From Promethearchaeota archaeon (lineage in GTDB: Archaea; Asgardarchaeota; Heimdallarchaeia; Hodarchaeales; Hodarchaeaceae), in NCBI GenBank assembly GCA_048938105.1, contig JBHLMN010000001.1, positions 1-64,000 of the forward strand: DNA of 64,000 bases, in the 5' to 3' direction. Below the pieces are notes generated by a model. That model did no database searches. It saw only the letters and a list, made by a program, of their open reading frames with translations, and was not told the origin of the DNA. Shown in pieces: positions 5,926 through 64,000 of the stretch. A program made the position numbers and the translations under genes. The stretch's first letter is position 1. Each line of letters begins with the position of its first letter.

Positions 5926-5960
5926 AATCCATTTTTTTAAGTAAAAGGACGGAAAATGGT

Positions 5961-8411: not shown

Positions 8412-8423
8412 TTTTTCTTTATT

Positions 8424-14470: not shown

Positions 14471-14528
14471 TAAAAACTACACTCCTGGTTATTTTATTCT
14501 TACATTAATTTGATTAAACATTTGAACA

Positions 14529-21447: not shown

Positions 21448-21640
21448 ATTGCAGCAAGCATGTGTATGTGAACTACCACCAGCTAAAGCAAGTGGCTTCC
21501 TACGAGTTCGCCAAACCCCTGATGAGGGGAGACTTTCGTTTTACCATTGACTGTGTATCGTAGATTATCAATCTGACTTAAGAAGGATTGATAGCCCGTC
21601 CACAGGGCATTATGTGAGAGAAAGCGCTTCATAATGTTGA
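21448..21640 (-). ncRNA. Predicted omegaRNA/reRNA (overlaps tnpB 3' end and right end; guide from the flank begins ATACACATGCTTGCTGC)
   Basis: Inferred from known TnpB biology: right-end hairpin and TTCAC terminus at 21468; boundaries approximate. Confidence 0.5.
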
Positions 21641-32889: not shown

Positions 32890-33429
32890 ATGAAATCTAA
32901 CCCCGAAGATCCGAATACTCCCTCATCCCTCTCAGAAAGTAATAATCCATGGAATATTATCATTGGTGTCGTACTAGCACCTTTGAGCAGCTTTCTCATT
33001 GTATTTTGCTTTACTACTGTAATAAATTTCATCCACAATATAGACATTAATGTACTAAATGAATTTCCATTTCTAATGCCATACATCAAATCGCAAACAG
33101 CAATAATTTGGCCTATAGCAATATACGCAGGAGGGATAATAGGAGGAATAATTGGAGGACTCTTAGCATATTGGGAAATAACAATGAAATTGAGGAAAAA
33201 TAGCCCTTTAAAACCAGTTCCCCTTTTTTCTTCAGATATTTTTTATCTAGGATTGTTAATAATATTGACTTATGTATTAGAATTACTTTCAGAGAGTGTA
33301 ATTCTCCAAGGTCTTCTATTTATACTGGAAATTGCCCTTTTCACTGTTATTGGACGATACATTAGCAGAATGGCTGTGAGTATTTCTGAAACTTCAGTGA
33401 ATTCCAATATTACAGATGTGGAGCCATAA
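32890..33429 (+). CDS. Hypothetical membrane protein (4 TM)
   Basis: 179-aa hydrophobic ORF 13 bp after lysS. Confidence 0.7.
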   Translation: MKSNPEDPNTPSSLSESNNPWNIIIGVVLAPLSSFLIVFCFTTVINFIHNIDINVLNEFPFLMPYIKSQTAIIWPIAIYAGGIIGGIIGGLLAYWEITMKLRKNSPLKPVPLFSSDIFYLGLLIILTYVLELLSESVILQGLLFILEIALFTVIGRYISRMAVSISETSVNSNITDVEP

Positions 33430-33589: not shown

Positions 33590-33994
33590 TTGCAATTTAG
33601 AACCTTTGGTTGGATAGCTCGGCAAAATCCAGACATCCGTATGACAAAAAACAAGATTGAAGACAATAAAAAATTCACATTTCCCGAGCTGTCTGATAAA
33701 AAGATTCAAGTGGCAGTTAAGGATCGAAAGACTTGGTTTAAAAAGGGGGAATTATGGCCAACAATAATTCTTGTCGAGAAGGGATGGGATAAAACTGGCA
33801 CTATAAAGAAAGAAGACGCTTACATCAGAATATTTAGGCATGAGGATGGCGCTATTCTTGATATATTGGTCGGCGAAAGTCTCGATGATGGAACTCTTCT
33901 CGCCGTCGACTACGAGGTACCTTTATTTAGTGTGACTTGTTCACGAAAAGGAACACGAGGTACGGTACAACGGATTCACCTAGATATCATCTGA
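33590..33994 (+). CDS. Hypothetical protein (true start possibly ATG at 33641)
   Basis: 134-aa ORF with no opposing gene. Confidence 0.6.
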   Translation: MQFRTFGWIARQNPDIRMTKNKIEDNKKFTFPELSDKKIQVAVKDRKTWFKKGELWPTIILVEKGWDKTGTIKKEDAYIRIFRHEDGAILDILVGESLDDGTLLAVDYEVPLFSVTCSRKGTRGTVQRIHLDII

Positions 33995-34070: not shown

Positions 34071-34337
34071 TCACTCTTCTGAAGACTCATCTTTATGAAG
34101 AAGAAAGGTGAACTTGGTAATGGTAGACATATTTCGTACTCTTCCCTCAGAATCAAGATAGAGTAGTCGAGCATGTGATTGTTCATCATCGATTCCATGT
34201 AAATCAAGAAATAGATCTAAACCCGTCACATCAGGTTGAAGTTGGTTCGCTGGAATACCAAGCGCCAAAGTCTTTTTACAGATAGAGCAAGGTTCAGTTC
34301 GAAGTCTCATAAGGCTAGACAACTTTATACCCTTCAA
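34071..34337 (-). CDS. Small putative Zn-binding protein (CxxC + H...H), last gene of the surface-protein operon
   Basis: PCSIC...HG...HARLLYLD...VR; 35 bp downstream of the previous gene on the same strand. Confidence 0.7.
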   Translation of the reverse strand: MKGIKLSSLMRLRTEPCSICKKTLALGIPANQLQPDVTGLDLFLDLHGIDDEQSHARLLYLDSEGRVRNMSTITKFTFLLHKDESSEE

Positions 34338-34372
34338 TCTATAGTATCATAAGGAAATTCTAGCTAGAAATC

Positions 34373-37300
34373 TTAATCATTCTCAGAGGTACTTTTGGAG
34401 GGGTCAGTTTCATCAGCTTCATCTTTGTCAGAGTCATCATCAGGAAAATCTAAGAATTCAGACTCAAAATCACCCATAATCTCTTCTGAAATCTCATCTG
34501 TCTCTATTTCAATCTCATCTAAAACCTCTAAAGTCCCTGAAATAAACAATCGGAATTCTTGGGCCTTTCTAAGAATAGTATCCTTATCCTCACCAGAACA
34601 GATGAGATCTTTCAACTCTATAATACCATCTTTAATCTCTTCTTGGAAATTATTCGCAGTTTCACCCCACTTTTCACGCATCACCAACATTAACAACAAG
34701 ATGCCTTGTCCACCACCAACAGGCACTTGGTCAAGAGTTAATGCTGATAACCATTGTTGGGGAAGAGTCGAAACAGGATACGCAAATGTAATGGCAGAGC
34801 ATCCAATTTCTTCAATCTTAAAGTCAACAAATGTCACTTGATCTTGAGGTCGGGTTTGCATGATAAAAGCAACATTGTTGTTCGCTTTATCAGTGAGCTC
34901 TTTCAAATACTGATAAAAATGCCCTATTAGTTGGGGTTCCCACATTAAAATGCTAGAAACACCTTCCCTCTGACCGTAAGCTGCTATAAAACCAAACATA
35001 GCCTCTTCTCCAAGATAAGCTAATCGTTCACTCCGACCAAGGGCAGCTTCGAAGCGTCTTCTGCGAAGAGCCTTCAATCGCTGTGATTGAGCGACTTTAA
35101 TTGCTGTGAAAACACTCACGAAAGCTGTTACTATGATAATTTCCATGATTAATAATCCAAGAAAAGTACTAAAAAAGATTTTAGTGGTATATTTACCAAT
35201 AGGTCGATTTTCCTCATTAATTTCATTACCTTCATTATCTACTGCATATACTCTAAATTGAATTTGTTCATTACCCAGCCATCCTGTATAAATTTTTGCA
35301 ATATAGCGATTTCCTTCTTGAGTCATATTTATACGGTTTGTCCATCCATCTTTAGTTCTCTTCTCGAGTATAACTGATTCAATACCACTTCCTAAATCAC
35401 TCGCTTGAACCCGAACTTGTAATAAACCAGGTTGAGAGTATTCTAAGTTTTCAATTCTAACTTTAGGTGCTAATTCATCACGTACTACATAATAATAAGT
35501 CTCGCTATATTCATTAGGATCAGGTGTAGCTTTATCTCGTACAACAACAGTAATTGAATAATTCTCATAGTCCTCGCTAAATGGTAATTGTAATGCTGCT
35601 ACTCCAGCAATTTTACCTAGAACATAAAGACCAGGAGTGGTTGTGTTCTTAAGCAGGACATGAGAATAAGCTTCAAAAATTGAACCATTTTCATAACGAA
35701 CAACGAGATACACCTCGTCAATTTCACCAAAGGGATCTGATGCTCTGACTGTAACATGGGTTCTTTCTTCAACTGTTGAGTTCGGTGTTATTGTGACCAT
35801 ATGAATTTCAGGTAATACTTCATCAGTAACAGCCACAATCCTAACTCCAGGATAAAAATCTGAATTGCCAGCCACAGTATCATTAAAAGATATCCCAAAT
35901 TCAACAGTCTTTCCATAAAATTGACTAATATTAAGGGTGAAAATAGCTTGATAATCTGTTCCACTACCAGTAATACTTATGGGATCTTGAATTTCCCCGT
36001 CAATTGTATAATTAAGTACTAAGGTATCGATTCCATAGCCCCAGTCAGTTATATTAACACTAATGGTTATAAGACCAGTTCCAGTTTGATTGATGACCGT
36101 ACTTTCAATTACAGGAGGACTATAATCTCCAATAATTGTACTCTGAATTTCTGATACAAAACTATTATTTGCATAATCAAATGTGACAAAATAAAATGTG
36201 ATCTCATCACTGAAATTGAAGGGGGTGAAAAATTGCCACTTTGTTTGAATATACCCTGCATTAGTGACATAACTAGGTGGTAGATAATTCAGACTAGAAT
36301 TCAATGTTTTGTTGTATTCAACCCCACTCTGGTTATAGAAAACGGTGACATTTTTTATTGAGCTTTCCCATGTACCTTCAGAGAAATTAGCCCAGAATTC
36401 AAAAATAGAAATATTATTAGTTCTATCAAGGCCCATATCAAGGGGTTGAGGTGGATTATTATCAGGAATGTCGGTTATACCTATAATCCGAATTTCATCA
36501 AACCAAACATCAAAATACTCATTCCAAAACTCTCTCGTGTTTAAATATGCCCCTAGTTCAAGTGTAAAGTTTGATGACTCGGGGTTAACTTGAAAACTAT
36601 ACTTGAAGGTATACCATTCTTCATCTTGAGTAATATTTGATCCCACTCGATAAAAAACAGTCCCATTGGGATTTGTTTCACTGATCGGGTTTCCCACCCA
36701 AAAGGATTTATCGGAATCCATAGGATGTTCTATTCTGCAACGAATCTCTTGAAAATCAGGAGTTCCATCCCTAACAATGACTTTATCACCGTATATAAAT
36801 TCATCGTAATCATCGAAACCGCCATTGGGGGTATCAAAACGCCATTTAAAGCTGATATTAATCATTTTGTATGTGTTTTGAATTGGAAAGTCAGCTTGCC
36901 ACCCTGCGGAAATATTTGATAAACGATACTCAACTAAATCCTCTACTGCTGAAGATTCGTTCTTTATTCCGTAATCATTCCCATTATTTCCTATTCTAGT
37001 GAACAATGAGGCTCCCTGTCCATTACCTGCAGTATTGTAAGGATCAATTAGACAATTTTCATACAAAGAAGAATCATATGAATCTGTACCTAGTAAATCG
37101 GCCCAAATTTTATTTTCATAACTGAAAGAGGTATCCTGTTCATCTAAAGTCTCATATAATAACACATCATACTGTTGTTGAATAGAAAATCGTGGTACAT
37201 GATCCCCTGAATTTAGTTCTCTGTACTGGGAATTGATGGAGTTCACATCAACTAGGGACTCCTGTTCAAAAGGAGAAATTGGAGTCAAAATGGACTTATC

Positions 37301-37450
37301 AGACATTATAAAAGATTCACTTTTTAATCCAGGTAGATTCCTATCTTGAAAGACATAAACCAAACCTGTGTTTGAATTAATCGTGTACATTAAACTTCCA
37401 ATATTCAATATCAGAGCAGTTAATACAATAATATGTCTGTACCTTACCAT
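34373..37450 (-). CDS. Single-pass surface protein C (1,025 aa): signal anchor, jelly-roll-like domain, Ig-like repeats, TM, longin/uDENN-like domain lacking the Arg, acidic tail
   Basis: N-terminal hydrophobic helix; D..xP and V.D.G.G repeats; TM ~35090-35165; cytoplasmic part aligns with paralogs (WEP, LTDK, PVGGGQ, REKWG). Confidence 0.85.
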   Translation of the reverse strand: MVRYRHIIVLTALILNIGSLMYTINSNTGLVYVFQDRNLPGLKSESFIMSDKSILTPISPFEQESLVDVNSINSQYRELNSGDHVPRFSIQQQYDVLLYETLDEQDTSFSYENKIWADLLGTDSYDSSLYENCLIDPYNTAGNGQGASLFTRIGNNGNDYGIKNESSAVEDLVEYRLSNISAGWQADFPIQNTYKMINISFKWRFDTPNGGFDDYDEFIYGDKVIVRDGTPDFQEIRCRIEHPMDSDKSFWVGNPISETNPNGTVFYRVGSNITQDEEWYTFKYSFQVNPESSNFTLELGAYLNTREFWNEYFDVWFDEIRIIGITDIPDNNPPQPLDMGLDRTNNISIFEFWANFSEGTWESSIKNVTVFYNQSGVEYNKTLNSSLNYLPPSYVTNAGYIQTKWQFFTPFNFSDEITFYFVTFDYANNSFVSEIQSTIIGDYSPPVIESTVINQTGTGLITISVNITDWGYGIDTLVLNYTIDGEIQDPISITGSGTDYQAIFTLNISQFYGKTVEFGISFNDTVAGNSDFYPGVRIVAVTDEVLPEIHMVTITPNSTVEERTHVTVRASDPFGEIDEVYLVVRYENGSIFEAYSHVLLKNTTTPGLYVLGKIAGVAALQLPFSEDYENYSITVVVRDKATPDPNEYSETYYYVVRDELAPKVRIENLEYSQPGLLQVRVQASDLGSGIESVILEKRTKDGWTNRINMTQEGNRYIAKIYTGWLGNEQIQFRVYAVDNEGNEINEENRPIGKYTTKIFFSTFLGLLIMEIIIVTAFVSVFTAIKVAQSQRLKALRRRRFEAALGRSERLAYLGEEAMFGFIAAYGQREGVSSILMWEPQLIGHFYQYLKELTDKANNNVAFIMQTRPQDQVTFVDFKIEEIGCSAITFAYPVSTLPQQWLSALTLDQVPVGGGQGILLLMLVMREKWGETANNFQEEIKDGIIELKDLICSGEDKDTILRKAQEFRLFISGTLEVLDEIEIETDEISEEIMGDFESEFLDFPDDDSDKDEADETDPSKSTSEND

Positions 37451-37453
37451 TTT

Positions 37454-40400
37454 TCATTCCACCATAGAATCTGACTCATAATCAATACCTGTATAGAGTT
37501 TATTAAATGAAATCATCAGTCTTGATACAAATTCTCGGAGCTGACGAGCATTTTTCTCAATTTGAGATGAAGATTGTTGACTTTCAACCATCTTACGAAT
37601 TTCACGTAATTTTTCCAGTAATTCATCTTGGAAAACCAATAAATAATCTCCCCACTCTTTCCTCAATAAGAGAACGATTGTTAGATTTTCTTTACCCCCA
37701 CGGGCTTCAGGATTGGGAACAGCAAACGAATATCCCAGAGCAGTACACTCATAACTTCCAGTGGAGAAATCAAAAGTACCACTTCTTTCTGCTTCCTCCA
37801 GCCTTACAAATTCAAGGGTCGAGAAGGATTTATCCGATAAGTCAAGCATTATTTGTTCTTGATCCTCAAGAAGGGGGGGTTCCCAAATAACAGGAACAGG
37901 GCCTTGGATTTGGTCAAAGAAATTGACAGTAACCCCTAATGCAAATTCATCCATTTGAGTGAGAATCACTTCTCGAGAGATCTTTTCACTTTCGTCCAAT
38001 ATCTTTTTCATATCATAACCAACTGTTTTAGAAGTGATTCTAATACCCACGATGATCATTACAACCAAAACTATACCAATAGCGAGAATAACAAAGGGAT
38101 TGATGATTAGAGGGGGAAGTTCAAAATCGCTATCCACCTTCCAAATATCCTTAAGTTCTTGTGGATTATAATCTCCGACATTTCCCACCTTGTCAACAGC
38201 AATAATACTAATTCCATACGATTTTGATCCAATAATATTATCAAACTCTATTTTTGATGAAATAACAGCAGAATATGTGGTTATTGATGAAATCAGCTGC
38301 GCTCCTGTACCTCCAATCTGTGTAAGATTAATTGATTGTGATCCAATTTTTAAGATTATATAGTCTACACCAAGACCTGCTTCTTCAACTTTCACTGTAA
38401 TCCTTATTTTTCTATCAACTGTAATCTCGTAAGTAATCTGGTGTATTCTTGGAGCAACACAATCCTCAATTTCTTCTTCTACTGAGTATGATTTCGTATT
38501 TCCGGCATTATCTGTAACGATAACAGTAAAATGATACATTTCAAAAACAGTGAGATTACCTTGCCATGAAAACCGTAATTCATCACGTTTATTTTCTAGA
38601 ACTCCTATGAGCTCCATATTAATTATCTGTGTCACATTATTTCGGTCTGTAATAACTAGCTGAACAGAATTTTCATTCAGCCCAGACCAAGTACTATCTC
38701 TGGCTACAACAGTGATACTCATGTTACCCTCTCTTATTTTTGTAGGATCTTTAGAATTGTATATAGTTAAGTAAGTTACATTGATTTTCTTGCCTTCTTG
38801 TTCAATGAACTGCGGTTTAAAAGGATCATAATTAGCTGTAATGTTAAATGAAATAATTTTAGAGTGAAACTTTTGTATCGACTGACTAACCTTATCAAAA
38901 TTAGTTCCTGTATCGGTGACATTTACCTGAAAAAGGAGAGTATCATTGAAATCAAATTGAAAGAAATCTTCATTACCCACCCACTCTTCTATCGATTGAT
39001 CATACGAATATGTATAAATATAACGAGATCCTCCAGAAGGTAACTGATAATACGTTGGGGGTCTAGGAAAATATTGTTGAACCGATGAACGAGCATCAAA
39101 TAATTCGACAGATTCAATCCCACTCCCTATCCAAGTTTCACTATCATCTGTTACATCGATAATAATTAATATTGTTCCATTTCCTAGTTCATAAGTGAAG
39201 AGTTCCATAATCCTGGGCTGCTGATCATCAATCCAGAATATTTCTAACCAGTCTTCCTTAGGTTCTGCGTCTGGAATATCTAACCATTGATACCATTGTT
39301 CAAATTGAGTTAGTCCAGTTGCTAAATCAGTCATACTTATAACTTCAATATACTGATACGCAGTCTTTAGACTAAATATGGAGAACTCAGTCCATGAAAT
39401 ATTTGTATATATTGAGCCATTCAGAGAAATGTCGAATCTTATCTTTGATGGGTCAATAGGAATCTCGAAATCAACAAATTCTTTGATGTCAACAGGGATA
39501 CTTTTTAATACTTTATATTCCAATGAAACAGAGATATTTGCCCAGCTACCATGAGGATGTTTTTGGTTTGCTACTAATGTAATTATTATTCTGTCCCACA
39601 ATATGCGTACATCATTTGAATCAGAGTTTGCAATCGAGAAAATTCCAAAACTAGGATCTGAATTTATTTTTAAAACCCGGAATCGAACAGCACGATATGC
39701 TTCAGTTCGATTCCCCTCCCAAGGAGCAATTCCTGCGGTAAACTCAAGAAGATGTGACTCCTGTTTTGTGAAATCATGAAGCGAGGCTGTTCCATTAAAA
39801 GGTGCATTATCATATGTATGGTAAGCATAACAGTATAACGTAGCATTTTGCCCAAAATTCGCAAAAAAGAGTCTAGTACCCCAATCCTGACTTGTTACAT
39901 TCTTTTCGGGGTCATAGGAGTCAGAAAAGGTGAAAACAATATCATCCCAAACAATATCCACAAAGACGATTCGATCGTCAGGTTTGTCATCTATCACATT
40001 CGTAAATTTCGTAATCCCAAATGATGCGTCCTCAATTCGTACAATATAATATCTATAACTGTCAGAACCAGTTTTAACTAACCCTAGCCAACTTCCATCT
40101 CCATCTTCCATATTAATATACTTTTGAATCCCAGATTCAAAGTCTTTAGCAATGATATATCCATTGAAATTGGAATAATCATGCTTCCAATAGGCATTAA
40201 AATTCATATCTACCTCTTTTCCTATTCCAACTCTGGCATCAGAAGGAATCATTTCAATAATTAAATATGTCCAAATAATAGTTAAATTAAAACTTGCCGA
40301 TTCTGCAGTTTTATTTACAAAGAGATATCCTTGAGGATCTATGGGAGACCCACTAATAATTCTACATTCAAAAGATACAGGTTCTGGTAAGTGATGAGAG

Positions 40401-57000: not shown

Positions 57001-60000
57001 GAAAATTGTGCCATTAGCATGTGAGCGATTACTTTCAGTATCATCTACAGTTACGCGTACTCTAAACAATTCATGCATAGTCAGATGTTTATTGGAGTAG
57101 AATAAAGAAGTACTACTCTCTTTGTAGAGATATTCAGAATCTGGAATAATGATATTGATGACATTTACACTTGGTTTTGTAATATCTAAATGTAGTTTAA
57201 AATCTGCAGAATTCGAGTTGCCCACCTGGTCATAGATTGTTATGGTATAGCTTCCTGTCTTATTTGTTGGCTGAATGGAATATTGCCATTGCCAATAACG
57301 AGCATGAGACGTGCCATTCTTTGTACTAGTATTATCATAATTATCTCCTCCAAAAATTTCAGGGAAAGATGCTTTTTTCACTCCAGAATTGATACTAGGA
57401 ATGGATTCTTCAGCAAGCACAGTTACTGTAAAGAGAGGAGTGCCTGTGCTTTTATTAGAATAATAAAGGAGTGTTTCGTTTACAGGATGCATGTATTCTT
57501 TGATTGCATCTTCTGTAAATCCTATTACTGTTATTGTTGGTTTTATTTTGTCTTTTAAGAAAGTTACAGTTTTTATATCTGTGTTGTTTACTCTATCTAC
57601 TCCAGTAATTATTATATTTGTCTCTGGGTAGGATTGTTCTAAATCATTGGCATGGATAGTATAAGTGGCTTCCCAAACTGGAGTCCCTACATCTTCTGGA
57701 GGGGAATCTCCAAAATGAGTGGTGAAATTTACAGTTAAATAACCAGAGTCCCCATCATTTATAGTTCCATTGATTACTACATCAACTCCACTAGGATCCA
57801 TGAGATTACTAAAGTAGAAGTATGTTCCAATAATATAAAGATAAGGACTTCCTGAGGGATTATCAACTAGATCAATAGCCACATTTGGTGCTGTATTATC
57901 CTCACGAAACTGGAATGTATCTATAAAGGAATTATTCACATTATCAGTGGCTGTATAAGTTATAGTGACATCATCATAAATGATAGAATCTCCTGAATCG
58001 ATCTTATACGTAAATGTCCAAGCATTTAGCGACCCACCTCGAATTGGGTCATTTCCAAATAATGTATTATCAGTAATAGAAAGCAATCCTGATCCGCTCC
58101 CATCACTGGCATCTCCACCCACTATAAAATCAGTTAAAGTCAGTCCCATATTATCGGAATAGAATCCATGATCTGAACTCCCATCATAATAGAGATAATC
58201 TGACAACTCGCTAGTACTTACTGGATTATAGGCAATACTTGGATTGGTGTTATCCTCTCTAAGTTCAAAAGAAGCAATAGCGGTATTTGCCACATTATCG
58301 GTAGCAGTATAAGTCACCGTAAAGGTACCATTCCCAGCATCCCCTTGATCAATGGCATAAGTAAAGATCCAGCTCGCTAAGGTGCCACCACGAGGGAGAT
58401 CATTCCCAAAAGCAGTATCATCCTCTATAGATAAAAGATCCGCTCCTCCATCGCTAGCTGTTCCTCCCACGATGAAATTAGTATCTACAGCACCCATGTT
58501 ATCTGAATAATAACCATGAGCAGAACTCCCATCATAATAGAGATAATTTGAAGACTCGCTAGTAGTTACTGGATTATGGGCAATACTTGGATTGGTGTTA
58601 TCTAATCGAAATTCAAAAGTATCACTAGCATTTATACTTGATGTTTCGACTATGAATGCAGTAAAAGTAATAATAAATGTATTAAAGATTGAATCAGATG
58701 AATTAATGGAATAAGTGAAACTCCATGTGTCACTTGTACCACTTAGGGAATCATTAAGGGGATTATTTCCAAAAGATGTATCATCCCTTACAATGAATAA
58801 AGTTCCTGTTTCTGTACTGACTGTTCCTCCAACAGTGAAATCGACTGAAGTACTTCCCATATTATCCGAATAATAACCAAAATCGGAACTCCCATCATAG
58901 TAAAGGTAGGGGGACGATTCTGATATAAAGGCTGAGTCAATAGTGATGATGATTTGGCCTACAAGCTCAATTGCATCATATTGAAATTCTAAATAGTTAC
59001 CAGCATTATTTATAATCCTAATTATAAATGTACCATTCTTATCTCCCCAATAATTAAAATCTTTAAGGTCAGGTAGCCCACTGGTATCATTTATTGCAAC
59101 TCCAAATGTGTTATTCTTATCCCATTCAATTTTCCAAAACCCACTATTATTAATATCTCCAGTATTAAGAACTGTGACAGTAAAGTAATCATTTTGCTGA
59201 CTATCAAAATAAATTGAAGAGCCATCAAAAAAGGCATTATCAAATGGAGCACCATCAGCTCTATCCCAATCTAAAGTAAAGCCTTCGGGGGAATCAGTAT
59301 CGACAATAACCCATTGTGTTGAATTATCACCTTCATTCCCGACATGATCTATTACTTTAAGGTCAACAGTATGATTTGCTTCAGTCATGGTATATTGTTT
59401 AGTTATCTCTGATTGCCATACAAATGCTGCTCCATCATAGCTAAATCCATAAGGAGAACCAGGTAATCCTGATCCAGTACCATCTGTCGCTGTTCCTCCT
59501 ACTGTAAAGTCAACGGTGGGATCATCATAATAATTAGTATTGGGAGCATAACCAATCGTTTTCGGATCTGCATCTAAAATTAACCAGTAACTACTTGGAT
59601 TAATGATATCACGACTAATAGTTATTGATGTGGTACCAGCATTCCCTAAGAGATCATAAACAGTGATAAGTAAGCTGCCACTCCATGAGTCAGCATTGGT
59701 GATATTGACTACTGGTACGTCATAGGTTCTTCCTGCTTCAGTATCCTCCGTATCATCAGTGCGGTCTTCAGGGGATCCTCCAAGATTAGCGGCTGCAATT
59801 GCATAATTCAACCCAACACCTGTTCCATCATCCGTGTTTACCCCCACAGTAAATTTCGCCTCACTTGAACCCATGTCGTCTCCATACCACCATATTGAAC
59901 CATTCCAATAGATGTAATCCTCTTGACCATTTGCAACTTCGTATTGGTGGGTATAATCTATAGTTGCAGAAGGAGCTGTATCGTCTAAAGTAATGTTATT

Positions 60001-63000
60001 AATTCCTGTAAAAGTGGTATTAGTTCTCCCAGCTTTGTCTCTGATAGTAATTGTAATAAAGGTTACCCCATCAGTATAGCTTGGATCAAGGTTGATAATT
60101 GAATAAAACGGACTAGATTGACCTTGACCTGCGTCACTTGCTTGATCACCGTTTAGATTACAGACCACTTGAATGGAGTATACATTAACTTCATTAAAAC
60201 TAATGCTATAATTTGCAAAACCAGTTTCTCCTTGATCATACCAATTTGGAGAGTAATCTGGTAAAATAAAGTTCGTTGTGATTGATTTAGGATTGATTGT
60301 ATCAACATGTACCTCATAGGAGCGATTAAAGAGGCCATAATTTCCTACTTTATCAACAGCTACAGCCCAAAAAGTGTAATCACCATCATCTCCTATATCG
60401 ACAGGATATACGAAGGGATCATCAGATGAATTATATGCATCAGGCGAATTATCATCAACATCGAAAACCACTGTGTTTATTCCAGAGGCACCATCAGCAA
60501 TCGGGGATGGATTGATTGAGAACCCGCTTCCATCTTGATCCCAACCAGCTACTGGAGATCCATCATTACCAGATGCGGTAATACTCGCCATCGTCGGACC
60601 AGTGGTGTCTGCTGTAGTGATAAGAGTTACTCTCTGACTTAATCCACATTGATTAATTATGTCGACTGTAATACTCCCTATAGCCCCTGTATTAGAATGA
60701 TAATTTTCAGAGAGATCAGTTGAAGAGAAGGGAGGAGACGAATCATTAACAGGTGAAGCAATTCCCCAACCCTCGCTGAATACCACACGCCAGGGTCCGC
60801 TATTTCCCCAGTCACCTGAACTATCCATTGATATACTCCATTCTGTATCACCTCCGTTTCCCAGAAAAAGTTCTCCCGAAGTGATATCAGACGAATCAGA
60901 TATCCAAGCGTAAGAAGGAGCCGCCAAAGTCCATATCCCTGTGCCAATTATATCTATATCCATTCCCGTTGGTGTTTCTGTGGAGTAATATACATCAATA
61001 TTGGGGGAAAATGTAGATGTAGCATTGTTACCTACATTGTCTACAACTTGGTACCAGATAGTATTGATGGTTTCGGCTGTAAGTGGGCACGAAACATTTG
61101 ATCCATCAGTAACAGAATCGCCATAAGTTCCTGTCGTATTAGACTTAATCTTTAGGATATAAATACCAGAGCCATCTTCAGTACGGTATACTGTAGCGTT
61201 AAAGGTTGAATCATCATAAAAAGCTTGTATAGTGGTGTTTCCTTTAGTCGGTAGGTATCCATCACCATTATTATCAGTATTGTCATAATAATCAGCAATC
61301 GATATTGCTGAAGGATCATCATTGTCCTCTCGAAACTCAAAAGTCATTATAGCAGTGTTGTTAACGAGATCGGTGGCTGTGTATTTCACCCTAAATATTC
61401 CATTCCCAAAATCTCCTTGGGTGATGTTATAAGTAAATGTCCAACTTGATAACGTCCCACCCATACCTGGATCTTTTCCAAAAGTAGTATTATCTACTAT
61501 AGATAAAAGACCCGCTCCTCCATCGCTAGCTGTGCCTCCTATGACAAAATCAGTACCTACAGGACCCATATTATCTGAATAATAACCATGAGTAGAACTC
61601 CCATCATAATACAGATAAGCAGAAGCCTCAGTTGTCGTACTGGAACTAAAATCAATCGTTGGGTCAGTATTGTCTTCACGAAACTCAAAGGAAGTGGTAA
61701 AGAAATTTCCCACATTATCAGTCGCATTGTAGGTTACCGAAAAGGTGCCGTTCCCAGCATCCCCTTGATCGATCTCATATGTAAATGTCCAGCTGGTTAA
61801 GGTACCACCACGAGGGAGATCATTCCCAAATGTAGTATCGTCCTCTATAGACAAAAGATCCGCTCCTCCATCGCTAGCTGTGCCTCCCACAACGAAATTA
61901 GTATCAATTGAATCCATGTTATCTGAATAATAACCATGAGTAGAACTACCATCATAATACAGATAGGGAGAATCCTCTGTTGTCGTACTGGTACTGATTC
62001 CAATAGTCGGATCAGTATTATCTTCCCGAAACTCAAAAGTTATGATATTGCTATTGTTCACCCTATCAATGGCTTTATAGGTCACTGTGAATGTCCCATT
62101 GTTCTTATCCCCTTGATCAATGGCATAAGTGAACGTCCAACTCGTAAGGGATCCCCCTCGTGGGGGATTATTCCCAAACGCAGTATCATCTTCGACTGCT
62201 AGCAATCCTACGCCTCCATCACTTGCAGTCCCTCCTATGATGAAATCATTATCCACAGAACCCATATTGTCCGAATAATAACCATAAGCAGCACTTCCCT
62301 CATAGTAGAGATAAGGAGACGATTCACTAGTTGCACCTGGATTATGTGTAATGGCAGGAATTGTATTGTCCTCTTTAAACTCAAAGTAAGCAGGTTTAGT
62401 ATTACCAACACGATCAGTGGCTGTGTACATAATTACGAACGTATGCTGGGCAGAGTCACCTGAAGTAATGCTATAAGTAAAGATCCAGTCCGTTAATGAT
62501 CCACTATTACTTGGATCAGTTCCAAATGTGGTATTATCAATTATTGAGAGTAAACCTGCGCCACCATCGCTTGCTGTGCCACCCACCACAAAATCAGTTG
62601 GCGTACTTCCCATATTATTCGAATAGTATCCATAAGCTGCAACGTTATCATAATAAAGGTAATTAGACGACTCACTTGTTGTACTTGGATCGTGATTATT
62701 AGTTGGATCAGTGTTATCTACACGAAATTCGAATAATGTTGTCCCATTATTACCTACATTATCAGTAGCAGTGTAAATGATGTTAAAGGTTCCTTCAGAG
62801 GAATCATCTGAATCGATGGTGTATGAAAAAGTCCAACTACTTAATGAACCACCTCTACTTGGGTTATCACCAAATGTAGTGGTATTATCGGTAACCAATT
62901 GCATACCTGCATCTGCATCATTAGCTGTTCCCCCAACAATAAACGTTACAGTTGTTAATTCCATGTTATCTGAGTAATACCCATGTGCAGAACTCCCATC

Positions 63001-64000
63001 ATAGTAGAGATATGGTGATGATTCACTCGTTGTACTTGGATTATGGCCAATTGTAGGATTGGTATTGTCTCGACTAATTAGTATTGTACATGAATTGTTA
63101 ATATTCCCAACTTGATCAGTTATAGTCAAAACAAGATTTATATTGGGCCCTATATCGGCTGAATTAATATCTACAACTGGGACATCATATGTTCTTCCTG
63201 CTTGAGTATCCTCTGTTTCATCCGTTCTTTCTGCAAGTGTTCCACCAAGATCGGAAGCAGCGCTTGCATTTTTTAAACCAGCACCAGTTCCATCACTTGC
63301 ATCGATTCCCACTGTAAAATTCGCTTCATTAAGTCCCATGTTTACTCCATACCACCATTTCGAGTTTGAAGCATCCCAATAGAGATATTCACCATATGCA
63401 GTCTCATATTGGTGTGAATAGTCTATTGTGGCCGAAGGGTTATCATTATCTTCTCGAAATTGAAAGGTTACGATATTGCTGTTGTTCACCTTATCAGTCG
63501 CTTTATAGGTCACTGTGAATGTCCCATTGTTCTTATCCCCTTGATCAATTGCATAAGTAAATGTCCAACTCGTAAGAGATCCCCCTCGTGGGGGATTATT
63601 CCCAAAGAAAGTATCATCCTCGATTGCTAATAATCCTACACCTCCATCACTTGCAGTCCCTCCTATGATGAAATTAGTATCTACAGGACCCATATTGTCC
63701 GAATAATAACCATAAGCAGCACTTCCCCCATAAAAGAGATAATCAGATGATTCACTAGTGGCACTCGGATTATGCGTAATAGTAGGATTAGTATTGTCTT
63801 CTCGAAACTGAAAAGAAGTAGTATTAGTATTTCCCACATGATCCTTGGCAGTATAGGTTATTAAAAATGTCCCATTATTCTTATCCCCTTGATCAATCTC
63901 ATAAGTAAAAGTCCAGCTGATTAAGAAACCACCTTGCGGGGGATTATTGCCAAAAGAAGTGTCATCCTCGATTGATAATAACCCCACACCCCCATCATCA
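42076..64000 (-). CDS. Giant repetitive single-pass surface protein A (>7,300 aa, 5' end outside the window) with cytoplasmic FLCN/SMCR8-like longin/uDENN domain
   Basis: Frame open to the window edge; more than 35 Ig-like repeats of ~110-120 aa; TM ~42655-42710; FFDQVKGP...YAFAVPDPEARGG. Confidence 0.9.
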   Translation of the reverse strand, partial: DDGGVGLLSIEDDTSFGNNPPQGGFLISWTFTYEIDQGDKNNGTFLITYTAKDHVGNTNTTSFQFREDNTNPTITHNPSATSESSDYLFYGGSAAYGYYSDNMGPVDTNFIIGGTASDGGVGLLAIEDDTFFGNNPPRGGSLTSWTFTYAIDQGDKNNGTFTVTYKATDKVNNSNIVTFQFREDNDNPSATIDYSHQYETAYGEYLYWDASNSKWWYGVNMGLNEANFTVGIDASDGTGAGLKNASAASDLGGTLAERTDETEDTQAGRTYDVPVVDINSADIGPNINLVLTITDQVGNINNSCTILISRDNTNPTIGHNPSTTSESSPYLYYDGSSAHGYYSDNMELTTVTFIVGGTANDADAGMQLVTDNTTTFGDNPSRGGSLSSWTFSYTIDSDDSSEGTFNIIYTATDNVGNNGTTLFEFRVDNTDPTNNHDPSTTSESSNYLYYDNVAAYGYYSNNMGSTPTDFVVGGTASDGGAGLLSIIDNTTFGTDPSNSGSLTDWIFTYSITSGDSAQHTFVIMYTATDRVGNTKPAYFEFKEDNTIPAITHNPGATSESSPYLYYEGSAAYGYYSDNMGSVDNDFIIGGTASDGGVGLLAVEDDTAFGNNPPRGGSLTSWTFTYAIDQGDKNNGTFTVTYKAIDRVNNSNIITFEFREDNTDPTIGISTSTTTEDSPYLYYDGSSTHGYYSDNMDSIDTNFVVGGTASDGGADLLSIEDDTTFGNDLPRGGTLTSWTFTYEIDQGDAGNGTFSVTYNATDNVGNFFTTSFEFREDNTDPTIDFSSSTTTEASAYLYYDGSSTHGYYSDNMGPVGTDFVIGGTASDGGAGLLSIVDNTTFGKDPGMGGTLSSWTFTYNITQGDFGNGIFRVKYTATDLVNNTAIMTFEFREDNDDPSAISIADYYDNTDNNGDGYLPTKGNTTIQAFYDDSTFNATVYRTEDGSGIYILKIKSNTTGTYGDSVTDGSNVSCPLTAETINTIWYQVVDNVGNNATSTFSPNIDVYYSTETPTGMDIDIIGTGIWTLAAPSYAWISDSSDITSGELFLGNGGDTEWSISMDSSGDWGNSGPWRVVFSEGWGIASPVNDSSPPFSSTDLSENYHSNTGAIGSITVDIINQCGLSQRVTLITTADTTGPTMASITASGNDGSPVAGWDQDGSGFSINPSPIADGASGINTVVFDVDDNSPDAYNSSDDPFVYPVDIGDDGDYTFWAVAVDKVGNYGLFNRSYEVHVDTINPKSITTNFILPDYSPNWYDQGETGFANYSISFNEVNVYSIQVVCNLNGDQASDAGQGQSSPFYSIINLDPSYTDGVTFITITIRDKAGRTNTTFTGINNITLDDTAPSATIDYTHQYEVANGQEDYIYWNGSIWWYGDDMGSSEAKFTVGVNTDDGTGVGLNYAIAAANLGGSPEDRTDDTEDTEAGRTYDVPVVNITNADSWSGSLLITVYDLLGNAGTTSITISRDIINPSSYWLILDADPKTIGYAPNTNYYDDPTVDFTVGGTATDGTGSGLPGSPYGFSYDGAAFVWQSEITKQYTMTEANHTVDLKVIDHVGNEGDNSTQWVIVDTDSPEGFTLDWDRADGAPFDNAFFDGSSIYFDSQQNDYFTVTVLNTGDINNSGFWKIEWDKNNTFGVAINDTSGLPDLKDFNYWGDKNGTFIIRIINNAGNYLEFQYDAIELVGQIIITIDSAFISESSPYLYYDGSSDFGYYSDNMGSTSVDFTVGGTVSTETGTLFIVRDDTSFGNNPLNDSLSGTSDTWSFTYSINSSDSIFNTFIITFTAFIVETSSINASDTFEFRLDNTNPSIAHNPVTTSESSNYLYYDGSSAHGYYSDNMGAVDTNFIVGGTASDGGADLLSIEDDTAFGNDLPRGGTLASWIFTYAIDQGDAGNGTFTVTYTATDNVANTAIASFELREDNTNPSIAYNPVSTSELSDYLYYDGSSDHGFYSDNMGLTLTDFIVGGDASDGSGSGLLSITDNTLFGNDPIRGGSLNAWTFTYKIDSGDSIIYDDVTITYTATDNVNNSFIDTFQFREDNTAPNVAIDLVDNPSGSPYLYIIGTYFYFSNLMDPSGVDVVINGTINDGDSGYLTVNFTTHFGDSPPEDVGTPVWEATYTIHANDLEQSYPETNIIITGVDRVNNTDIKTVTFLKDKIKPTITVIGFTEDAIKEYMHPVNETLLYYSNKSTGTPLFTVTVLAEESIPSINSGVKKASFPEIFGGDNYDNTSTKNGTSHARYWQWQYSIQPTNKTGSYTITIYDQVGNSNSADFKLHLDITKPSVNVINIIIPDSEYLYKESSTSLFYSNKHLTMHELFRVRVTVDDTESNRSHANGTIFNDQDTSSDYSNNYYQLTYWVDYNEFEGGSVAITGYDLVGNNETSYLTVKLDNNPPTPVIYYVYTTTEHLYYNSTGTKRLYYSDDQVMFADFTIQVTADDGTGAGLLNATGEAKFGETVRLDTTYDEGYNLTYQININELEPITTNITIWVFDQVGNNEIVKLLCLEDNDPPSSLLITNVIETSPFIYYDVSRKILFYSNDQPQDESFSIRITAADAKVGLKNATGEENEFNDTNINDINYLPKGYYELSYIISQSDYATEGKVVYTVYDLCGNWNTVNLTATLDNKAPQDVFIDQVIEGSNYIYLKNDSGSLTLYVSTLSLSSETFSIYINNTEPSSESGRLLANGSLYFGESPSTTSYQYVLTYSIDPGDTAFNGTSIVIETYDKVGNKNSTSLPIYVDHTPPHKTSLFFNDHESDYLHDDGTQFFFSANMLSVQTMTINGTASDGGGVGVHRIISENAFGSTFSPNYGTYWSFDYEIDSLDSEQYTTGFIRIFLIDRVNNSRQVDVPYVSDNEGPSSVNIHEITEDLLAEYLHYVSGTTAILWYSNVRTDKGPRKFTVKVTSVDTGGAGLRNASFPDIGAGFSSGGYDTNYALDFWNYSYTALNGAHNGSVTIKVWDNVANSNTTSFYLYLDNTGPKNLAFSELTEDSVFIHYTGTTLYYSNDPSIISPQIFTLKISAKDIHSGLFSGNGSYDFGEQHNTTSSDGYFSLQYGIEAGESASNNLLSINVYDNVGNNETFYLTCVNDATPPAQPTIIGIIESSCNIYYNSSTKILWYSSDQTMSDSFTIRITTSDSQSGLHKATGSLEFGSTPSDLSYTPENYYQLPYVIDTGEGTSGGITITIYDRVNNSNEYTLQVNLDDTPPKSLTIEYVDTYSSEYLYYNITLQNHTLYYSNDQEMNEQFSIFVTAHDGSGVGLFNATGENDFGDVGVSDSDYVSNYVLHYNIGQSENATNNETIIWVYDRVGNSATVNLTSVLDNDPPVLVVLHHLEENSDYLYYDETKKIFFYSSDQSMNDEFTLQLNVTERSSGVKNVTGSSDFGETTPFTTTNSTGQFWIQYTVSESETAGVDNKIIITVYDRVGNINNNYELSAILDDDPPAQIQIEGIIESSEFLYYDGTILFYSNYRTLQNEVFNVNITCEDLASGRLIVKGGTAFGEQPSSSDYTNDYYLISYTVSYEETSPTQFSVTVYDNVNNYESRPVNCTKDNFSPHSLSILDVIESSDFLYYNGSSKELYYSNQNPTMSESFTIRITCIDDDAGRLNATGEPDFGDPKPGDISYLPGNYYELDYTVDPGNIATKGYIQLFIFDRVGNNESINLVCRLDNTAPTGDIDTIIESSPHLFYNDGTERFYFSNNQGMSDSFTIRVTSTDVGINQSGRLNATGEYEFLDSGVGDTDYSTYYELVYTIDENDGVSDENVTIKLYDRVGNYLELNLTCIEDNIAPTFIHIDSVQVYNSYYLYYATSTNTLFYNNQNPMNDPVRINITASDGTGAGLRSVNGSIDFNEQHNSTEYLPSWGYSLVYYVNSGETASDNEIRFYVYDKVGNYASNKTNAFLDITEPYVAIQTVIEDSEYLHYSGGVLYYSNHTIGMHEKFTIRVIGSDSGGAGKLNATGEDDFNSFDVGDTDYTTYYELEYYVDYGGYASEGSVSIYFFDRVGNSKTTSLPCTLDNTPPSGLAIESVGENAVNLYYEPGIGLFYSNDTIGLDSEFYVIILASDPISMLQNATGSLDFGEFGFDLSYSNGYNLSYIVSYDEDVGDDEKIVIKVFDHVGNYNTINLSCIVDNTPPTITIEYPDSKVWNKTDGGVSLFGGNVFDNGGTYKSGIDTNSYAFTEFDEVISSYIGSPNQSFVNEAPGGNTWRNTFNITTIDNANVTLTVYVSDRVGNRNKYSVQVWHDDTDPSISYNWIIFLGGDDELLEAGKTTDVYYSINDNASIYFDIDFDVSGLGSPSFFSGLFSAEYQTDDGSGWYTIFDYSSDPSLIDFTDDWQILNWIDTLFNGPNTIDLRVTDEAGNVFTHNYIPGTSGFNFLLTKNGPAIATASVLGNEQYISDTTIYDWDGTDFILNFNYTSVAPLDQISIYSDQNAIIQVYNFADLQWSNDGNNYYLSNKLINYDFGTEGNRSIFIRAKDSTEWYSSWTQMWLFVDEYVPEISLSTITELNLSWTIYANAADKKLYFSDKMGNSHAGFNVTVNAVDSGSGMTGGFVHFEDFDSGAVASQDVVDTAVFWVNSLTTNGIWVQAYAVDASNRTSNVESLVQVVQDVTDPVVDIMSVIESSEFLYNVGNTMLYYSNYHVGMHELFEVRVTVDDGSGSGRVNATGTAFLETDSSTDYTAGYYSLYYFVDKDDLEGASITITGYDLVGNSATDSLPLANDNDPPDPLTIVNVDDSFSDYLYYDGTLYYSSDQSMNDPFIIYLTAIESSSGIQNVTGSFDFNEFASSFKESGGFYNLTYNVGTGESASGGKITLTVFDNVGNSKNINLSCILDDDRPEFVTIEGIIKDSFLLYYSGTTLYYSNWHSSQDEQFSINITSNDLISGLMRVDGSMAFTDSPSSSDYSQGYYLVDYTVMKDETAPEDQITITVYDQVMNSRSTTLTLQKDNTKPSISINTVVETSPYLYYNDSSKKFYFSNDQPMSDQFTIQITGSDTGGAGRFNATGEADFNDPISGDPSYLPQNYYQLNYTVDLGDPVSNGYIRIWLYDRVGNNNSIDLTCIEDNVAPSGSIEEVVESSPHLYYNSTSGEFYYSNDQVFSVSFSISVTASDNVVGASLQKIVGEDDFNNSGVFDNDYSDYYWLTYFISKSDYATEGQLELTLYDNVGNTFPINLICHRDNDPPKIDLAKMAIDEHTDYTHYLKDGTQILWYSNRMPFDIDFQITVTTNDSTFPSDSGLYRIRFPTFFNTTVFNTTNPTQTYYISNASSSSGFMTFTSFDNCGNSASTSLEVRRDNTKPKGFIISIEETPESLFVHETQDLESYNTNGFIPELWYSDNMGLSAVPVNITLNATDPGSVFAGIANITFPGIGTEGVQEVTSTTIYYSRTYTLSTSDDTTATIDFTIIDNVYNAYIVRLHVIKDTTPPTIHFTDVTDPIYDVIGTELDNDSNWYDQGVLTSGFMISSAPLDLPNGPYPKSGIYTVYLDWVSTGSPDRMGVDLGKDGDGTIFGIENDTDGIITLTLTAYDHVGNTNQTSITIQFDNTKPVYFDNTVLHQNGNISLSGQAFDAGSDVQNITIRDLSGNHFQNIISEDFADWTVNNNSAFNDITPSQNVLIELEVYDNVHNSIKYNATITYHTLSFFVLKHNIPKHVEIDDPGVWDIIIGIEYDNKIINKSNNIIDRRVNETQFVVQIAGTSMPINSLIWAPTDEHNFTLAISLPGRSAIENLTIGATFGEQLRLIWAILDSNIEVEIDYQKSDVVIYHDLEIKYEEDNVEIIETDNTDNDIMNVTLYLEKDYSPYTGNLAIENIIFTVNETQATFLGAEHLGNGYHNITIQLPQHLDTGSKDLDFVWTLGTGIYQYVVESNTSAAEKPAGIVIYHDIVIDASIPESLRVFEVDGDFYFLVNFTVTEDKGDKSYDLIDNSDLQCLIIKGQDLTYLIDNNDSTSLGNYFFDFTLTDDITPKSWVGDILVRFRIQNPISELYEWGETYIQGHDLQMTINTIETTRVGSDLHEFDPDDRTTFYITFTVQDSNGTISPVTTLNASNFVWMDLINVESANENVSLDNIVDWFDFQDPPTPGKYIIEFVLDSIQASELGLNFINLILTINDKFGHNVTNSKVDLESKDFVTLLGLEWIITPYGRFNFTEVNATLDYTFRLSVGDEITVCFKIYKLEVPGKIPTTDKVTIFWDHTPWNATDTLWYSPDESEFVNITVKSDRLSPSRPFIAYAEGNSEKQFSLAPWRFYLEWAKIQATTEAVDDNTEDDNNSVLNVNGMYDLTYSAQIYRSSKASLVKTGGVIFNINIELWQFLGGQWVSLNPFSIDHSDGSGNITSTFHNGTTKVGIIKIIDEMENIDDADGQINIQLKFSEVIKVNLDVRIADEMNEGSNKAYRFYSSYPEEYEYPGSVFSYINETADADYKATVIWTKFQVRMWAADSRIPQLTSCKIHVEAFYAHDFSIPLDGVLLTIRDNVSAAETSNNVWVNHRIKFEGITHTVNKVMFNITKDGFKDQKFGITVFEHITTKARDIRVEIIWDRVIFRISLAEPWGSLLRFNVNTHGSVQIQAYYEYDNTPFNGVITVLHDYYQNISLAPQYWNVSVPVTLPILYQDEPGDALFLIEDIVSDKWGLSVNETRLGFQVLSTTEDVPFLSLSWDRIIIKFPDETIFQPGESITISLIAEYESDHKAVTNLIYNLTKDGEMVPEIAEVNRTLKFFSDHEMYSINHTYQIIDAYDPITGLTGAYSVIKEVNPFVSISWYDTLAPILLEQTLIDFGDGTLGIGVMVTDDKPEKYFGSGIEEVTAWLTIERSPRPGRRVTLDLFTNTSSGLFYFIVISTDTTSVRDNFYYNARLNYTIQIKDKRGNTVSYEFPTKLVFDSLAPKIAFLELRYDDSSDGNLTIAINASDFWSGLETASIRFFDPTTSSWMEPHNMNYREINGTTREFWFNSIFDVGATVKYQLNVTDNFGNSGIIKGSILITDEAGPQLVDCVFKYNPFGEFSIEIEVGDNGAQIDNATLYYYIKGKGVPVSLDEVLSGGSGGSLLQSPNYLYKKTFTKKFTILDFLSSNTVQFKLSLTDSEGNERIITNSELSKFLAGLSPEGFAIPPASFELISNPFVILLIIVILLAFAYITVQRLRTIRGFDKGKIMDDLVKVADNEVWEQNDNISIGLVANFFDQVKGPVPIIVFPDKMRTSEAMLASLADRSFSTLGFVAKPEEDKHATFRFQVGGERCTVFGYAFAVPDPEARGGQENLSICFVIRPPFGNLENINKFLNELLENIRKIRELMASQADVKVVQKEMENTRNFFTRVMLLFRRKYKQEFIE
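47780..57900 (-). repeat. Intragenic type-C repeats (~25 copies of ~110 aa)
   Basis: ESSxxLYY...LYYSNDQ.M...NATG..DF...YxLxY...D.VGN...DNxxP recurs. Confidence 0.85.
57890..64000 (-). repeat. Intragenic type-A repeats (~10 copies of ~119 aa) plus two type-B repeats
   Basis: ESSxYLYYDGSSxHGYYSDNMG...GGTASDGG...WTFTY...EDNTxP; near-identical DNA at ~62044-62290 and ~63470-63728. Confidence 0.9.

Follow-up and report, generated by a model that had tools for sequence, protein, structure and literature searches.

Background

Rag GTPases and the longin-type GTPase-activating proteins (GAPs) that act on them form the core of eukaryotic nutrient signaling to TORC1, in which FLCN-FNIP (Lst7-Lst4 in yeast) is the GAP for RagC/D (Gtr2) and NPRL2-NPRL3 (GATOR1) the GAP for RagA/B, while SMCR8-C9orf72 is a GAP for Arf/Rab. 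In addition, eukaryotes possess plexins, receptors that cross the membrane once and carry, on the cytoplasmic side, a GAP domain acting on Rap GTPases. In most placements, Heimdallarchaeia are the class of archaea nearest to eukaryotes. Here we analyzed the first 64 kb (positions 1 to 64,000, hereafter the window) of the 493-kb contig JBHLMN010000001.1 of a Heimdallarchaeia genome (Promethearchaeota archaeon, family Hodarchaeaceae, GCA_048938105.1; 5.85 Mb in total), where three adjacent genes, named C, B and A in the order of transcription, encode large predicted surface receptors whose tails resemble the longin domain of FLCN. Sister genes of these receptors stand beside Rag-type GTPase genes, an arrangement suggestive of a receptor in the membrane that is coupled to a GTPase switch of the eukaryotic kind.

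Soluble FLCN/SMCR8-type longins that carry a GP motif and an arginine finger have been described in Asgard archaea (Traffic 2025, PMC12290439), as have Rag-like GTPases and roadblock proteins (PMC10933270). FLCN-like longin-DENN proteins of Heimdallarchaeia were reported together with an operon that combines LAMTOR1-like and Rab-like genes with DENN genes and whose GTPase does not belong to the Rag family (Liu et al., 10.1101/2020.10.19.343400). Soluble FLCN-type longins and Rag-like GTPases were already known in Asgard archaea, though without a functional context. The word "transmembrane" is absent from PMC12290439 and PMC10933270, and no receptor form is mentioned in them. In the literature searched, the coverage of which is incomplete, so that an earlier description is possible, we found neither a transmembrane (TM) or receptor GAP-longin nor a linkage of such domains to Rag-family gene pairs, in line with an earlier note on the sequence of the window that knew of no description of this architecture. 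New here are the TM-anchored receptor form of a GAP-type longin, the conserved synteny of C, B, A and a small fourth gene, and the linkage to Rag genes in relatives.

Operon structure and membrane topology

Genes A, B and C are co-oriented and closely packed on the minus strand, where all features of the operon given below lie. Gene C, the giant receptor, occupies 42076-64000 of the window (stop codon at 42076-42078) and continues beyond it to a start codon at contig position 68646, so that the full open reading frame (ORF) of the contig encodes 8856 aa. It is followed by gene B (37454-42076; 1540 aa), which has orthologues in 11 of 11 syntenic loci, and gene A (34373-37450; 1025 aa), for which syntenic orthologues were found as well. 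The C/B junction reads GAATAATGTTG, in which one A belongs both to the TAA stop of C and to the ATG of B (TAATG), and the B/A junction reads TGAAAAATG, with 3 bp between the TGA of B and the ATG of A. Both the junction letters and the ORFs agree with the earlier description of three packed genes with a TAATG overlap at 42076 and a 3-bp gap at 37451-37453.

Each of the three proteins begins with a basic and then hydrophobic signal-like segment (MTLKYQEYFLKAILLLLLVLMISSVSM in C) and has, by hydropathy, a single strongly hydrophobic helix 190-240 residues before its C-terminus. These helices correspond to residues 8644-8665 of C (42652-42717), ~1322-1346 of B (38039-38113) and ~758-783 of A (35102-35179). 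The 15 residues past the helix contain five (A), three (B) and five (C) lysines and arginines, compared with two, two and none preceding it. N-x-S/T sequons are in excess in the ectodomains when compared with shuffled sequences (24 vs. 8.8 ± 2.7 in A, 37 vs. 13.8 ± 3.0 in B, and 204 vs. 135.6 ± 10.1 in C), while the tails contain none (A), one (B) or two (C). Since this excess outside with nearly no sequons in the tails coincides with a positive-inside charge bias, an N-out, C-in orientation is indicated, and the prediction of A, B and C as type I single-pass surface proteins with cytoplasmic tails, which the earlier note had proposed, is well supported. The ectodomains are probably N-glycosylated.

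Protein C consists of a unique head of ~1030 aa, a tandem repeat region, and a unique membrane-proximal part of ~1650 aa. Self-comparison recovered a period of ~116 aa and around 50 tandem units (protein residues ~1030-7000; the in-window part of the array lies at 47647-63999), which are 71-86% identical at the DNA level. When Pfam scores were summed over the repeats, Big_13 (37.4 bits) and Big_3_3 (30 bits) were above their cut-offs and Filamin (26.8 bits) was borderline, so the units are probably immunoglobulin (Ig)-like β-sandwiches. An Ig-like ectodomain had been assigned to each of the three proteins in the earlier note; the assignment has direct support for C, whereas A and B gave exclusively sub-threshold matches to Big_7 and Big_13.

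Orthologues share 38-42% identity in the ectodomains and 70-81% in the tails. For instance, the mean column identity of B orthologues is 81% in the tail vs. ~38% in the ectodomain, and A-type tails have a median identity of 72%. Judged from these alignments, the ectodomains are fast-evolving and the cytoplasmic longin domains slowly evolving.

Fold of the cytoplasmic tails

The tail of C (42079-42651) contains an FLCN-type longin domain at residues ~8699-8853, as indicated by AlphaFold2 (AF2), VIA-align and Pfam. It is 39% identical to the longin tail of B (37457-38038) and 16-18% identical to the divergent longin-type tail of A (34376-35101), which was nevertheless homologous to the family when searched against a profile made without A-type sequences (E 2e-12). 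The three regions (~190-240 aa) are therefore paralogous, as had been noticed before for a length of ~190 aa.

The AF2 model of the C tail, built on an alignment of 130 sequences, has a mean predicted local distance difference test (pLDDT) score of 92.6 and a predicted template modeling (pTM) score of 0.88. Two helices are followed by β1 (32-41), β2 (45-52), a helix (60-74), β3 (83-92), β4 (95-107), β5 (115-124) and another two helices, and a longin fold with β-β-α-β-β-β-α topology is well supported by this model. The best Foldseek match was FLCN in the active FLCN GAP complex (8dhb_J), an outcome that bears out the longin fold suspected in the earlier note, for which a Foldseek comparison had been proposed. 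Re-scoring with VIA-align placed the Roadblock-Longin protein of a Lokiarchaeota (8yqg) on top (Z 14.3), followed by FLCN (8dhb_J, Z 12.7; 6nzd_H and 6ulg_L, both Z 11.8), Lst4 (Z 11.4), C9orf72/SMCR8 (Z 11.1 and 10.6), and NPRL2 and DENND1A (both Z 9.9). A structure scan of 48,161 PDB representative chains that was independent of Foldseek returned the same order as VIA-align: the top nine matches were all GAP/GEF-type longins (GEF, guanine nucleotide exchange factor), with FLCN as the best eukaryotic one, while SNARE, TRAPP and adaptor longins reached Z 7-8.8 and both roadblock (Z ~6-7) and PAS-like folds scored lower. PAS/LOV and LuxR-type ligand-binding folds also appeared among the Foldseek matches and were dropped because of root-mean-square deviations (rmsd) above 10 Å or Z ≤ 7.4. 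For the A tail, the alignment was shallow (19 sequences) and the resulting model unusable (pLDDT 39.5), so its assignment as a longin rests on profile homology.

Conserved motifs of the tails

Two motifs stand out in the first two proteins of the operon, FFDQVKGPVP and PEARGGQENL in C and FFDQIQGPVP and PEARGGKENL in B. The earlier note had placed FFDQxxGPVP and PEARGG in "A and B", which is correct for the first two proteins in transcription order, here C and B, but not for the 1025-aa protein A, where both are absent. The GP motif of C (G8712-P8713; 42508-42513) corresponds to G45-P46 of the model and opens longin strand 2, and that of B lies at residues 1392-1393. In C, R8779 of the PEARGG motif (42310-42312) is the candidate arginine finger; it lies in the β4-β5 loop, between model strands 95-107 and 115-124, and its counterpart in B, identified by motif, is R1459 (37700-37702). 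Within the 130-sequence alignment the glycine and proline of FFDQxxGPxP are kept in 119 and 112 sequences, respectively, and the arginine of ARGG in 113; GP and arginine are near-invariant even in lineages that are only ~25% identical.

In the published GAP longins, the GP motif is located at the end of the loop preceding the second strand, spatially beside the arginine finger, and is specific to C9orf72, SMCR8, FLCN and NPRL2, being absent from FNIP2, NPRL3 and other longins (PMC12290439). SMCR8 R147, the equivalent of FLCN R164, is found in the longin βL4-βL5 loop (10.1101/2020.04.16.045708). The GP and loop arginine positions of B and C agree with these. The match to FLCN R164/SMCR8 R147 suggested in the earlier note could thus be followed by position and motif to the same β4-β5 loop in B and C, though not in A, which has no such arginine. 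In the 19 A-type tails, G-[VIS] replaces GP and a conserved 13-residue insertion replaces the arginine loop. These tails end in a conserved acidic-aromatic peptide, DDIMxDFExEFLD (in its longer form EIETExDE.SDDIMxDFExEFLD; 34376-34500 in A, and also recorded at loci L030 and L036). In two orthologues the peptide is present twice, and it resembles short linear docking motifs.

Folliculin (PF11704) was the sole recurrent Pfam family among the tails (17/130 at E ≤ 0.01); the A tail had no match to it. The genome also encodes a soluble FLCN-like protein that passes the gathering threshold of this family (28.5 bits; threshold 23.3 bits). Aligned with hhalign, the tail profile matched this protein with an E-value of 7.9e-6, pairing FFDQVKGP with VFDEEHGP and PDPEARGG with EDPEARGK. 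The soluble protein (449 aa) is encoded on the same contig at 295247-296593 (minus strand; 7247-8593 of locus L013), ~231 kb beyond the window. Directly upstream of its gene, on the same strand, are a roadblock/LC7-like and a Zn-ribbon gene, both of which are weak, sub-threshold Pfam matches.

Distribution of the tail family

When 1.84 billion representative proteins were searched with the tail profile, 167 clusters with the domain were recovered at E ≤ 1e-3, 138 of which reached E ≤ 1e-10. Among the matches listed, the domain was at the extreme C-terminus in 144 of 150, and a TM segment immediately preceded it in 121 of the 137 that had enough upstream sequence. The profile matched 54 of the 82 genomes of the class and 19 of the 20 genomes of the host genus (2-11 copies each), and close homologues of the tails carry the NCBI names Hodarchaeales or Hodarchaeota. 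Outside the class only weak matches were obtained (E 1e-6 to 1e-12), except in one genome with 9% contamination, where the close tail copy could be located on a mis-binned contig. From these sequence matches, the family is mostly a Heimdallarchaeia one, C-terminal and TM-anchored. Sixteen of the 150 listed representatives are soluble proteins of 230-590 aa that start with a coiled-coil-like region and then continue into the same type of longin domain (P0113-P0118, P0121, P0138 and others).

The order of a giant, a ~1550-aa, a ~1000-aa and a ~80-aa gene, together with the same downstream neighbors, was retained in all 11 congeneric loci fetched, which answers in the affirmative the synteny search proposed in the earlier note. 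Elsewhere in the genome, three further receptors (2580, 1133 and 3552 aa) have the same tail.

Rag-type GTPase genes beside related receptors

In order to inspect more distant relatives, 12 receptor loci from other families were picked blind to their neighbors. Their homology to the operon is limited to the TM segment and the tail, and PF04670 (Gtr1_RagA) genes flank the receptor in 11 of them, usually two such genes together with a divergent Ras-like gene. Ten loci from two other families have a fixed cluster consisting of a ~240-aa divergent Ras-like gene, one to three tandem receptors (1440-1620 aa) and a Gtr1/RagA gene of 490-651 aa, with an opposite-strand 407-aa Gtr1/RagA-family gene in eight of the ten (PF04670 E 1e-23 to 1e-34); the cluster elements missing in these ten loci coincide with contig ends. 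In the eleventh locus a 2321-aa receptor lies between two PF04670 genes, and the twelfth has the Ras-like gene only. The neighbors at the distant loci had been guessed to be homologues of the lysyl-tRNA synthetase (LysRS), NTP-transferase and 241-aa genes of the window; this was ruled out with BLAST, and they proved to be Rag-/Ras-like GTPases.

The association extends to the genome studied here. Immediately upstream of the 2580-aa paralogue (contig C28), and in the same orientation, is a PF04670 gene of 729 aa, with a divergent one of 300 aa next to it (E 5e-32 and 1e-37). Of 31 strong matches to the 300-aa GTPase across the genus, at least 14 have a receptor tail no more than 10 kb away on their contig, in most cases within 3 kb. 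As only nine PF04670 genes occur in the 5.85-Mb genome, adjacency by chance would be expected in ~1% of cases per locus. The receptor-linked GTPases have intact G1, DxGGQ and Rag-type HKxD G4 motifs, and the Rag-linked receptors all keep FDQxxGPxP and [AM]RGGxEN. The connection with small GTPases that the earlier note had suspected is hence visible in relatives flanked by Rag-family genes, but not beside the operon itself.

Two properties of the linked genes were recorded alongside. The ~240-aa Ras-like gene of loci L037-L047 always precedes the receptor-Rag cluster and has a weak Pfam Ras match, with the motifs GDGxTGKT (G1), PGQ (G3) and THxD (G4). One of the two receptor-linked Rag-like GTPases has a long C-terminal extension without Pfam match, bringing it to 490-729 aa in total (12971-15157 on the minus strand of L010; 11990-13459 on the plus strand of L037 and orthologues).

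Comparison with described systems

The tails share with the longin domain of FLCN (8dhb, 6nzd, 6ulg) the fold (Z 11.8-12.7; rmsd 2.7-2.8 Å over 134-139 residues), the GP at strand 2, the arginine in the β4-β5 loop, a near-threshold PF11704 match over the arginine-bearing region, and, at the level of the family, a genomic association with Rag-family GTPases. They differ in having no DENN domain and in forming the C-terminal end of surface proteins that span the membrane once and measure 1000-8856 aa, whereas FLCN belongs to a soluble complex that is recruited to lysosomes. Sequence identity is ~16-21%, the tails remain below Pfam membership, and their GAP activity and heterodimers are predicted at most. 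Considering that a GAP-longin fold with its motifs is combined with sub-threshold Pfam scores and the absence of DENN, we regard the tails as a new architectural variant rather than as folliculin orthologues; they probably work like FLCN or SMCR8.

SMCR8-C9orf72 and NPRL2-NPRL3 belong to the same GAP-longin class (Z 9.8-11.1), and their combination of an arginine-bearing with an arginine-less longin is mirrored within one operon by B and C vs. A. However, those are soluble multi-domain pairs, while here the arginine-less A is itself a receptor and the pairing is hypothesized. The soluble Asgard longins have the same domain type and motifs, including the best structural match of all (8yqg from Lokiarchaeota, Z 14.3) and the genome's own FLCN-like protein, which aligns with the tails motif for motif, but they are cytosolic, in contrast to the TM-anchored tails. 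Unlike in the FLCN-like operon of Liu et al., where the GTPase is of a non-Rag type, the neighbors of the receptor relatives belong to the Rag family. Plexins, too, have an intracellular GAP module, in their case regulated by ligand-induced dimerization, that is joined through one TM helix to a large Ig-like/IPT ectodomain; the plexin GAP fold is nonetheless RasGAP-like, unrelated and without homology, and the likeness is an analogy only. The bacterial MglB is likewise a prokaryotic member of the roadblock/longin superfamily and a GAP for the small Ras-like GTPase MglA, but it is a soluble roadblock dimer without the GP/arginine-finger arrangement, and roadblock domains scored Z ~6-7 in our comparisons.

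Functional interpretation

Fold, motif conservation, purifying selection and the gene neighborhood in relatives lead us to consider it reasonably probable that A, B and C are surface proteins with cytoplasmic GAP-type longins acting on Rag-like GTPases. On the cytoplasmic side of the cell membrane, the tails of B and C would bind such small GTPases and, by means of their loop arginines (R1459 and R8779, respectively), stimulate GTP hydrolysis. Occupancy or clustering of the ectodomains, caused for instance by cell contact or by binding to a surface or polymer, might alter the pairing or presentation of the tails, and this in turn could set the local state of the GTPase. That signals run from cell contact to the GTPase, as this scheme has it, is conjecture. 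The arginine-less paralogue A shares its conserved operon with the arginine-bearing B and C, and because it has lost both catalytic-type motifs and is still strongly conserved, we propose a non-catalytic role for it, most likely, by analogy with FNIP, NPRL3 or C9orf72 in their heterodimers, as a longin partner or regulator.

None of the three outcomes by which the earlier note would have considered its reading refuted (a fold other than longin, an arginine that does not superpose on FLCN R164/SMCR8 R147, extracellular C-termini) was observed. Several observations nevertheless weigh against receptor-GAPs of this kind. Longin domains act more often as GEF or scaffold modules than as GAPs, and the eukaryotic GAP longins function as heterodimers and carry DENN domains; no DENN domain is present here, B and C ending 3-10 residues past the two helices that follow the longin sheet. 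The PF11704 match is below the gathering score in the C tail (22.6-22.8 bits) and lower still in B (17 bits), and one tail of the three, that of A, is devoid of the arginine. Sequence and profile searches of PDB chains, with the C tail and the soluble FLCN-like protein among the queries, reached no FLCN, SMCR8 or NPRL2, so that the arginine is a putative equivalent of FLCN R164, judged by its loop position and motif. For the closest structural match, the archaeal longin 8yqg, no description of its activity was found in the literature searched. The genomic evidence is affected as well, as genomes of one genus or family are non-independent samples, and the nearest Rag-like genes are ~28 kb beyond the start of the giant. 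No GTPase, roadblock or longin gene was detected within ~15 kb on either side of the operon, nor in its 11 syntenic relatives; the GTPase or roadblock genes that the earlier note had proposed to look for upstream are accordingly missing over this distance, and the GTPase of the operon would have to be encoded elsewhere in the genome.

Alternatively, the tail could anchor Rag-like GTPases at the membrane or serve as their scaffold, much as Ragulator or Ego does, or it could be a longin of the GEF type, like those of Mon1-Ccz1, TRAPP or DENN proteins. It would then recruit or activate GTPases instead of switching them off, with the arginine being structural or binding another partner. Most longin and roadblock domains serve as GEFs or platforms, the longins of DENND1A, TRAPP and Mon1-Ccz1 were also among the structural matches, the best-scoring structure belongs to an Asgard Roadblock-Longin protein with no activity described in the literature searched, and a gene linkage to Rag-like GTPases would suit a scaffold equally well. 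We nevertheless find this explanation unlikely, given that GP together with the loop arginine is reported to be specific to GAP longins and not to be found in FNIP2, NPRL3, TRAPP, adaptins or DENND (PMC12290439), that both are near-invariant across the tail family, including its ~25%-identical lineages, and that the best eukaryotic match is FLCN and not a GEF longin. The structural scores bear in a similar way on a role in sorting or assembly of the giant adhesins, comparable to the longins of SNAREs and of the adaptor σ/μ subunits, in which the tail would serve insertion, clustering, turnover or a cytoskeletal link without any GTPase enzymology and the Rag neighborhood would reflect a shared pathway. 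SNARE (VAMP7, Ykt6, Sec22) and adaptor longins did match at Z 7-8.4, though clearly below the FLCN/FNIP/C9orf72-SMCR8/NPRL2 group. The absence of a GTPase gene adjoining this operon and the acidic-aromatic C-terminal peptide of A, with its resemblance to a short docking motif, would fit such a module; the conserved catalytic-type motifs and a Rag-gene adjacency that exceeds chance ~100-fold in several lineages would not, and we hold it to be quite improbable.

Least plausible, with hardly any weight in our judgment, are structural envelope proteins or adhesins in which the cytoplasmic domain is an inert anchor left by domain shuffling. The ectodomains indeed resemble adhesins and S-layer-like proteins in their very large size, their repeats and their fast evolution, and extensive domain shuffling has been reported for Asgard signature proteins (10.1101/2020.10.19.343400). 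Against this, the tails are the most conserved part of the proteins (70-81% vs. 38-42% identity, and 81% mean column identity in B) and keep specific motifs across the class, which is not expected of an inert remnant.

If A, B and C are receptor-GAPs, a wider proposal can be formulated, namely that Heimdallarchaeia have membrane receptor-GAPs that directly control a Rag-like GTPase pair and that these represent a prokaryotic forerunner of the lysosomal nutrient-sensing platform of FLCN-Rag, GATOR1-Rag and SLC38A9, with the arginine-bearing B and C and the arginine-less A prefiguring FLCN-FNIP-type heterodimers. The lysosomal lumen is topologically equivalent to the cell exterior, and for this reason a receptor-GAP of the cell membrane could precede a platform on the lysosome surface. 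We advance this proposal tentatively and think it rather doubtful. The placement of a GAP-longin on the inner end of very large surface proteins, repeatedly beside Rag-like pairs, provides a concrete hypothesis of outside-to-inside or inside-to-outside signaling via a Rag-type switch at the membrane, and it defines targets for recombinant work: the ~190-aa tails, the named arginines, and the candidate GTPase partners of the same genomes, which here include the C28 pair beside the paralogue and a Rag-like pair at 99753-100775 and 102538-103476 of the contig that holds the operon.

Neighboring genes and other features of the locus

Downstream of A, the operon includes a fourth, small co-oriented gene (34071-34322; ~83 aa, TTG start inferred from orthologues) that falls inside the region marked in the earlier note, which begins at 34071, but was not mentioned there. 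Its product has an invariant CxxC...H...H pattern, possibly for zinc binding, and is 55-90% identical across the 11 congeneric loci. In some relatives the gene adjoins the stop of A or overlaps it; in two of the genomes it follows the end of A directly, its start codon having one base in common with the final codon of A. A single paralogue exists in the genome, at 258119-258373 of the same contig and adjoining no receptor gene; no homologue was found in the distant receptor loci searched, and the protein-atlas clusters of the small gene consist of Asgard hypothetical proteins.

A search for RNA evidence listed only sediment and mangrove metagenome DNA datasets, and no RNA dataset. The surroundings of the operon are archaeal, with ThiN, TnpB, kinase and ABC transporter genes within the ~15 kb upstream, and class I LysRS, nucleotidyl transferase, RadA, Cdc6/Orc1 and other genes downstream. 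Between LysRS and the operon are two conserved plus-strand genes without Pfam family, encoding proteins of 134 aa (33590-33994) and 179 aa (32890-33429); the former is 56-95% identical among congeners, and its neighbors in the protein atlas are weak and phage-like (score 0.87). TnpB/Cas12f-like genes of the IS605 family occur at a distance on each side of the operon, one at 21483-22769 of the window and one at 6021-7325 of locus L009, both on the minus strand. Finally, a minus-strand gene at 10298-14470 encodes a 1390-aa protein of unusual architecture, in which an N-terminal TrmB-type helix-turn-helix domain is combined with long apolipoprotein-like helical repeats.

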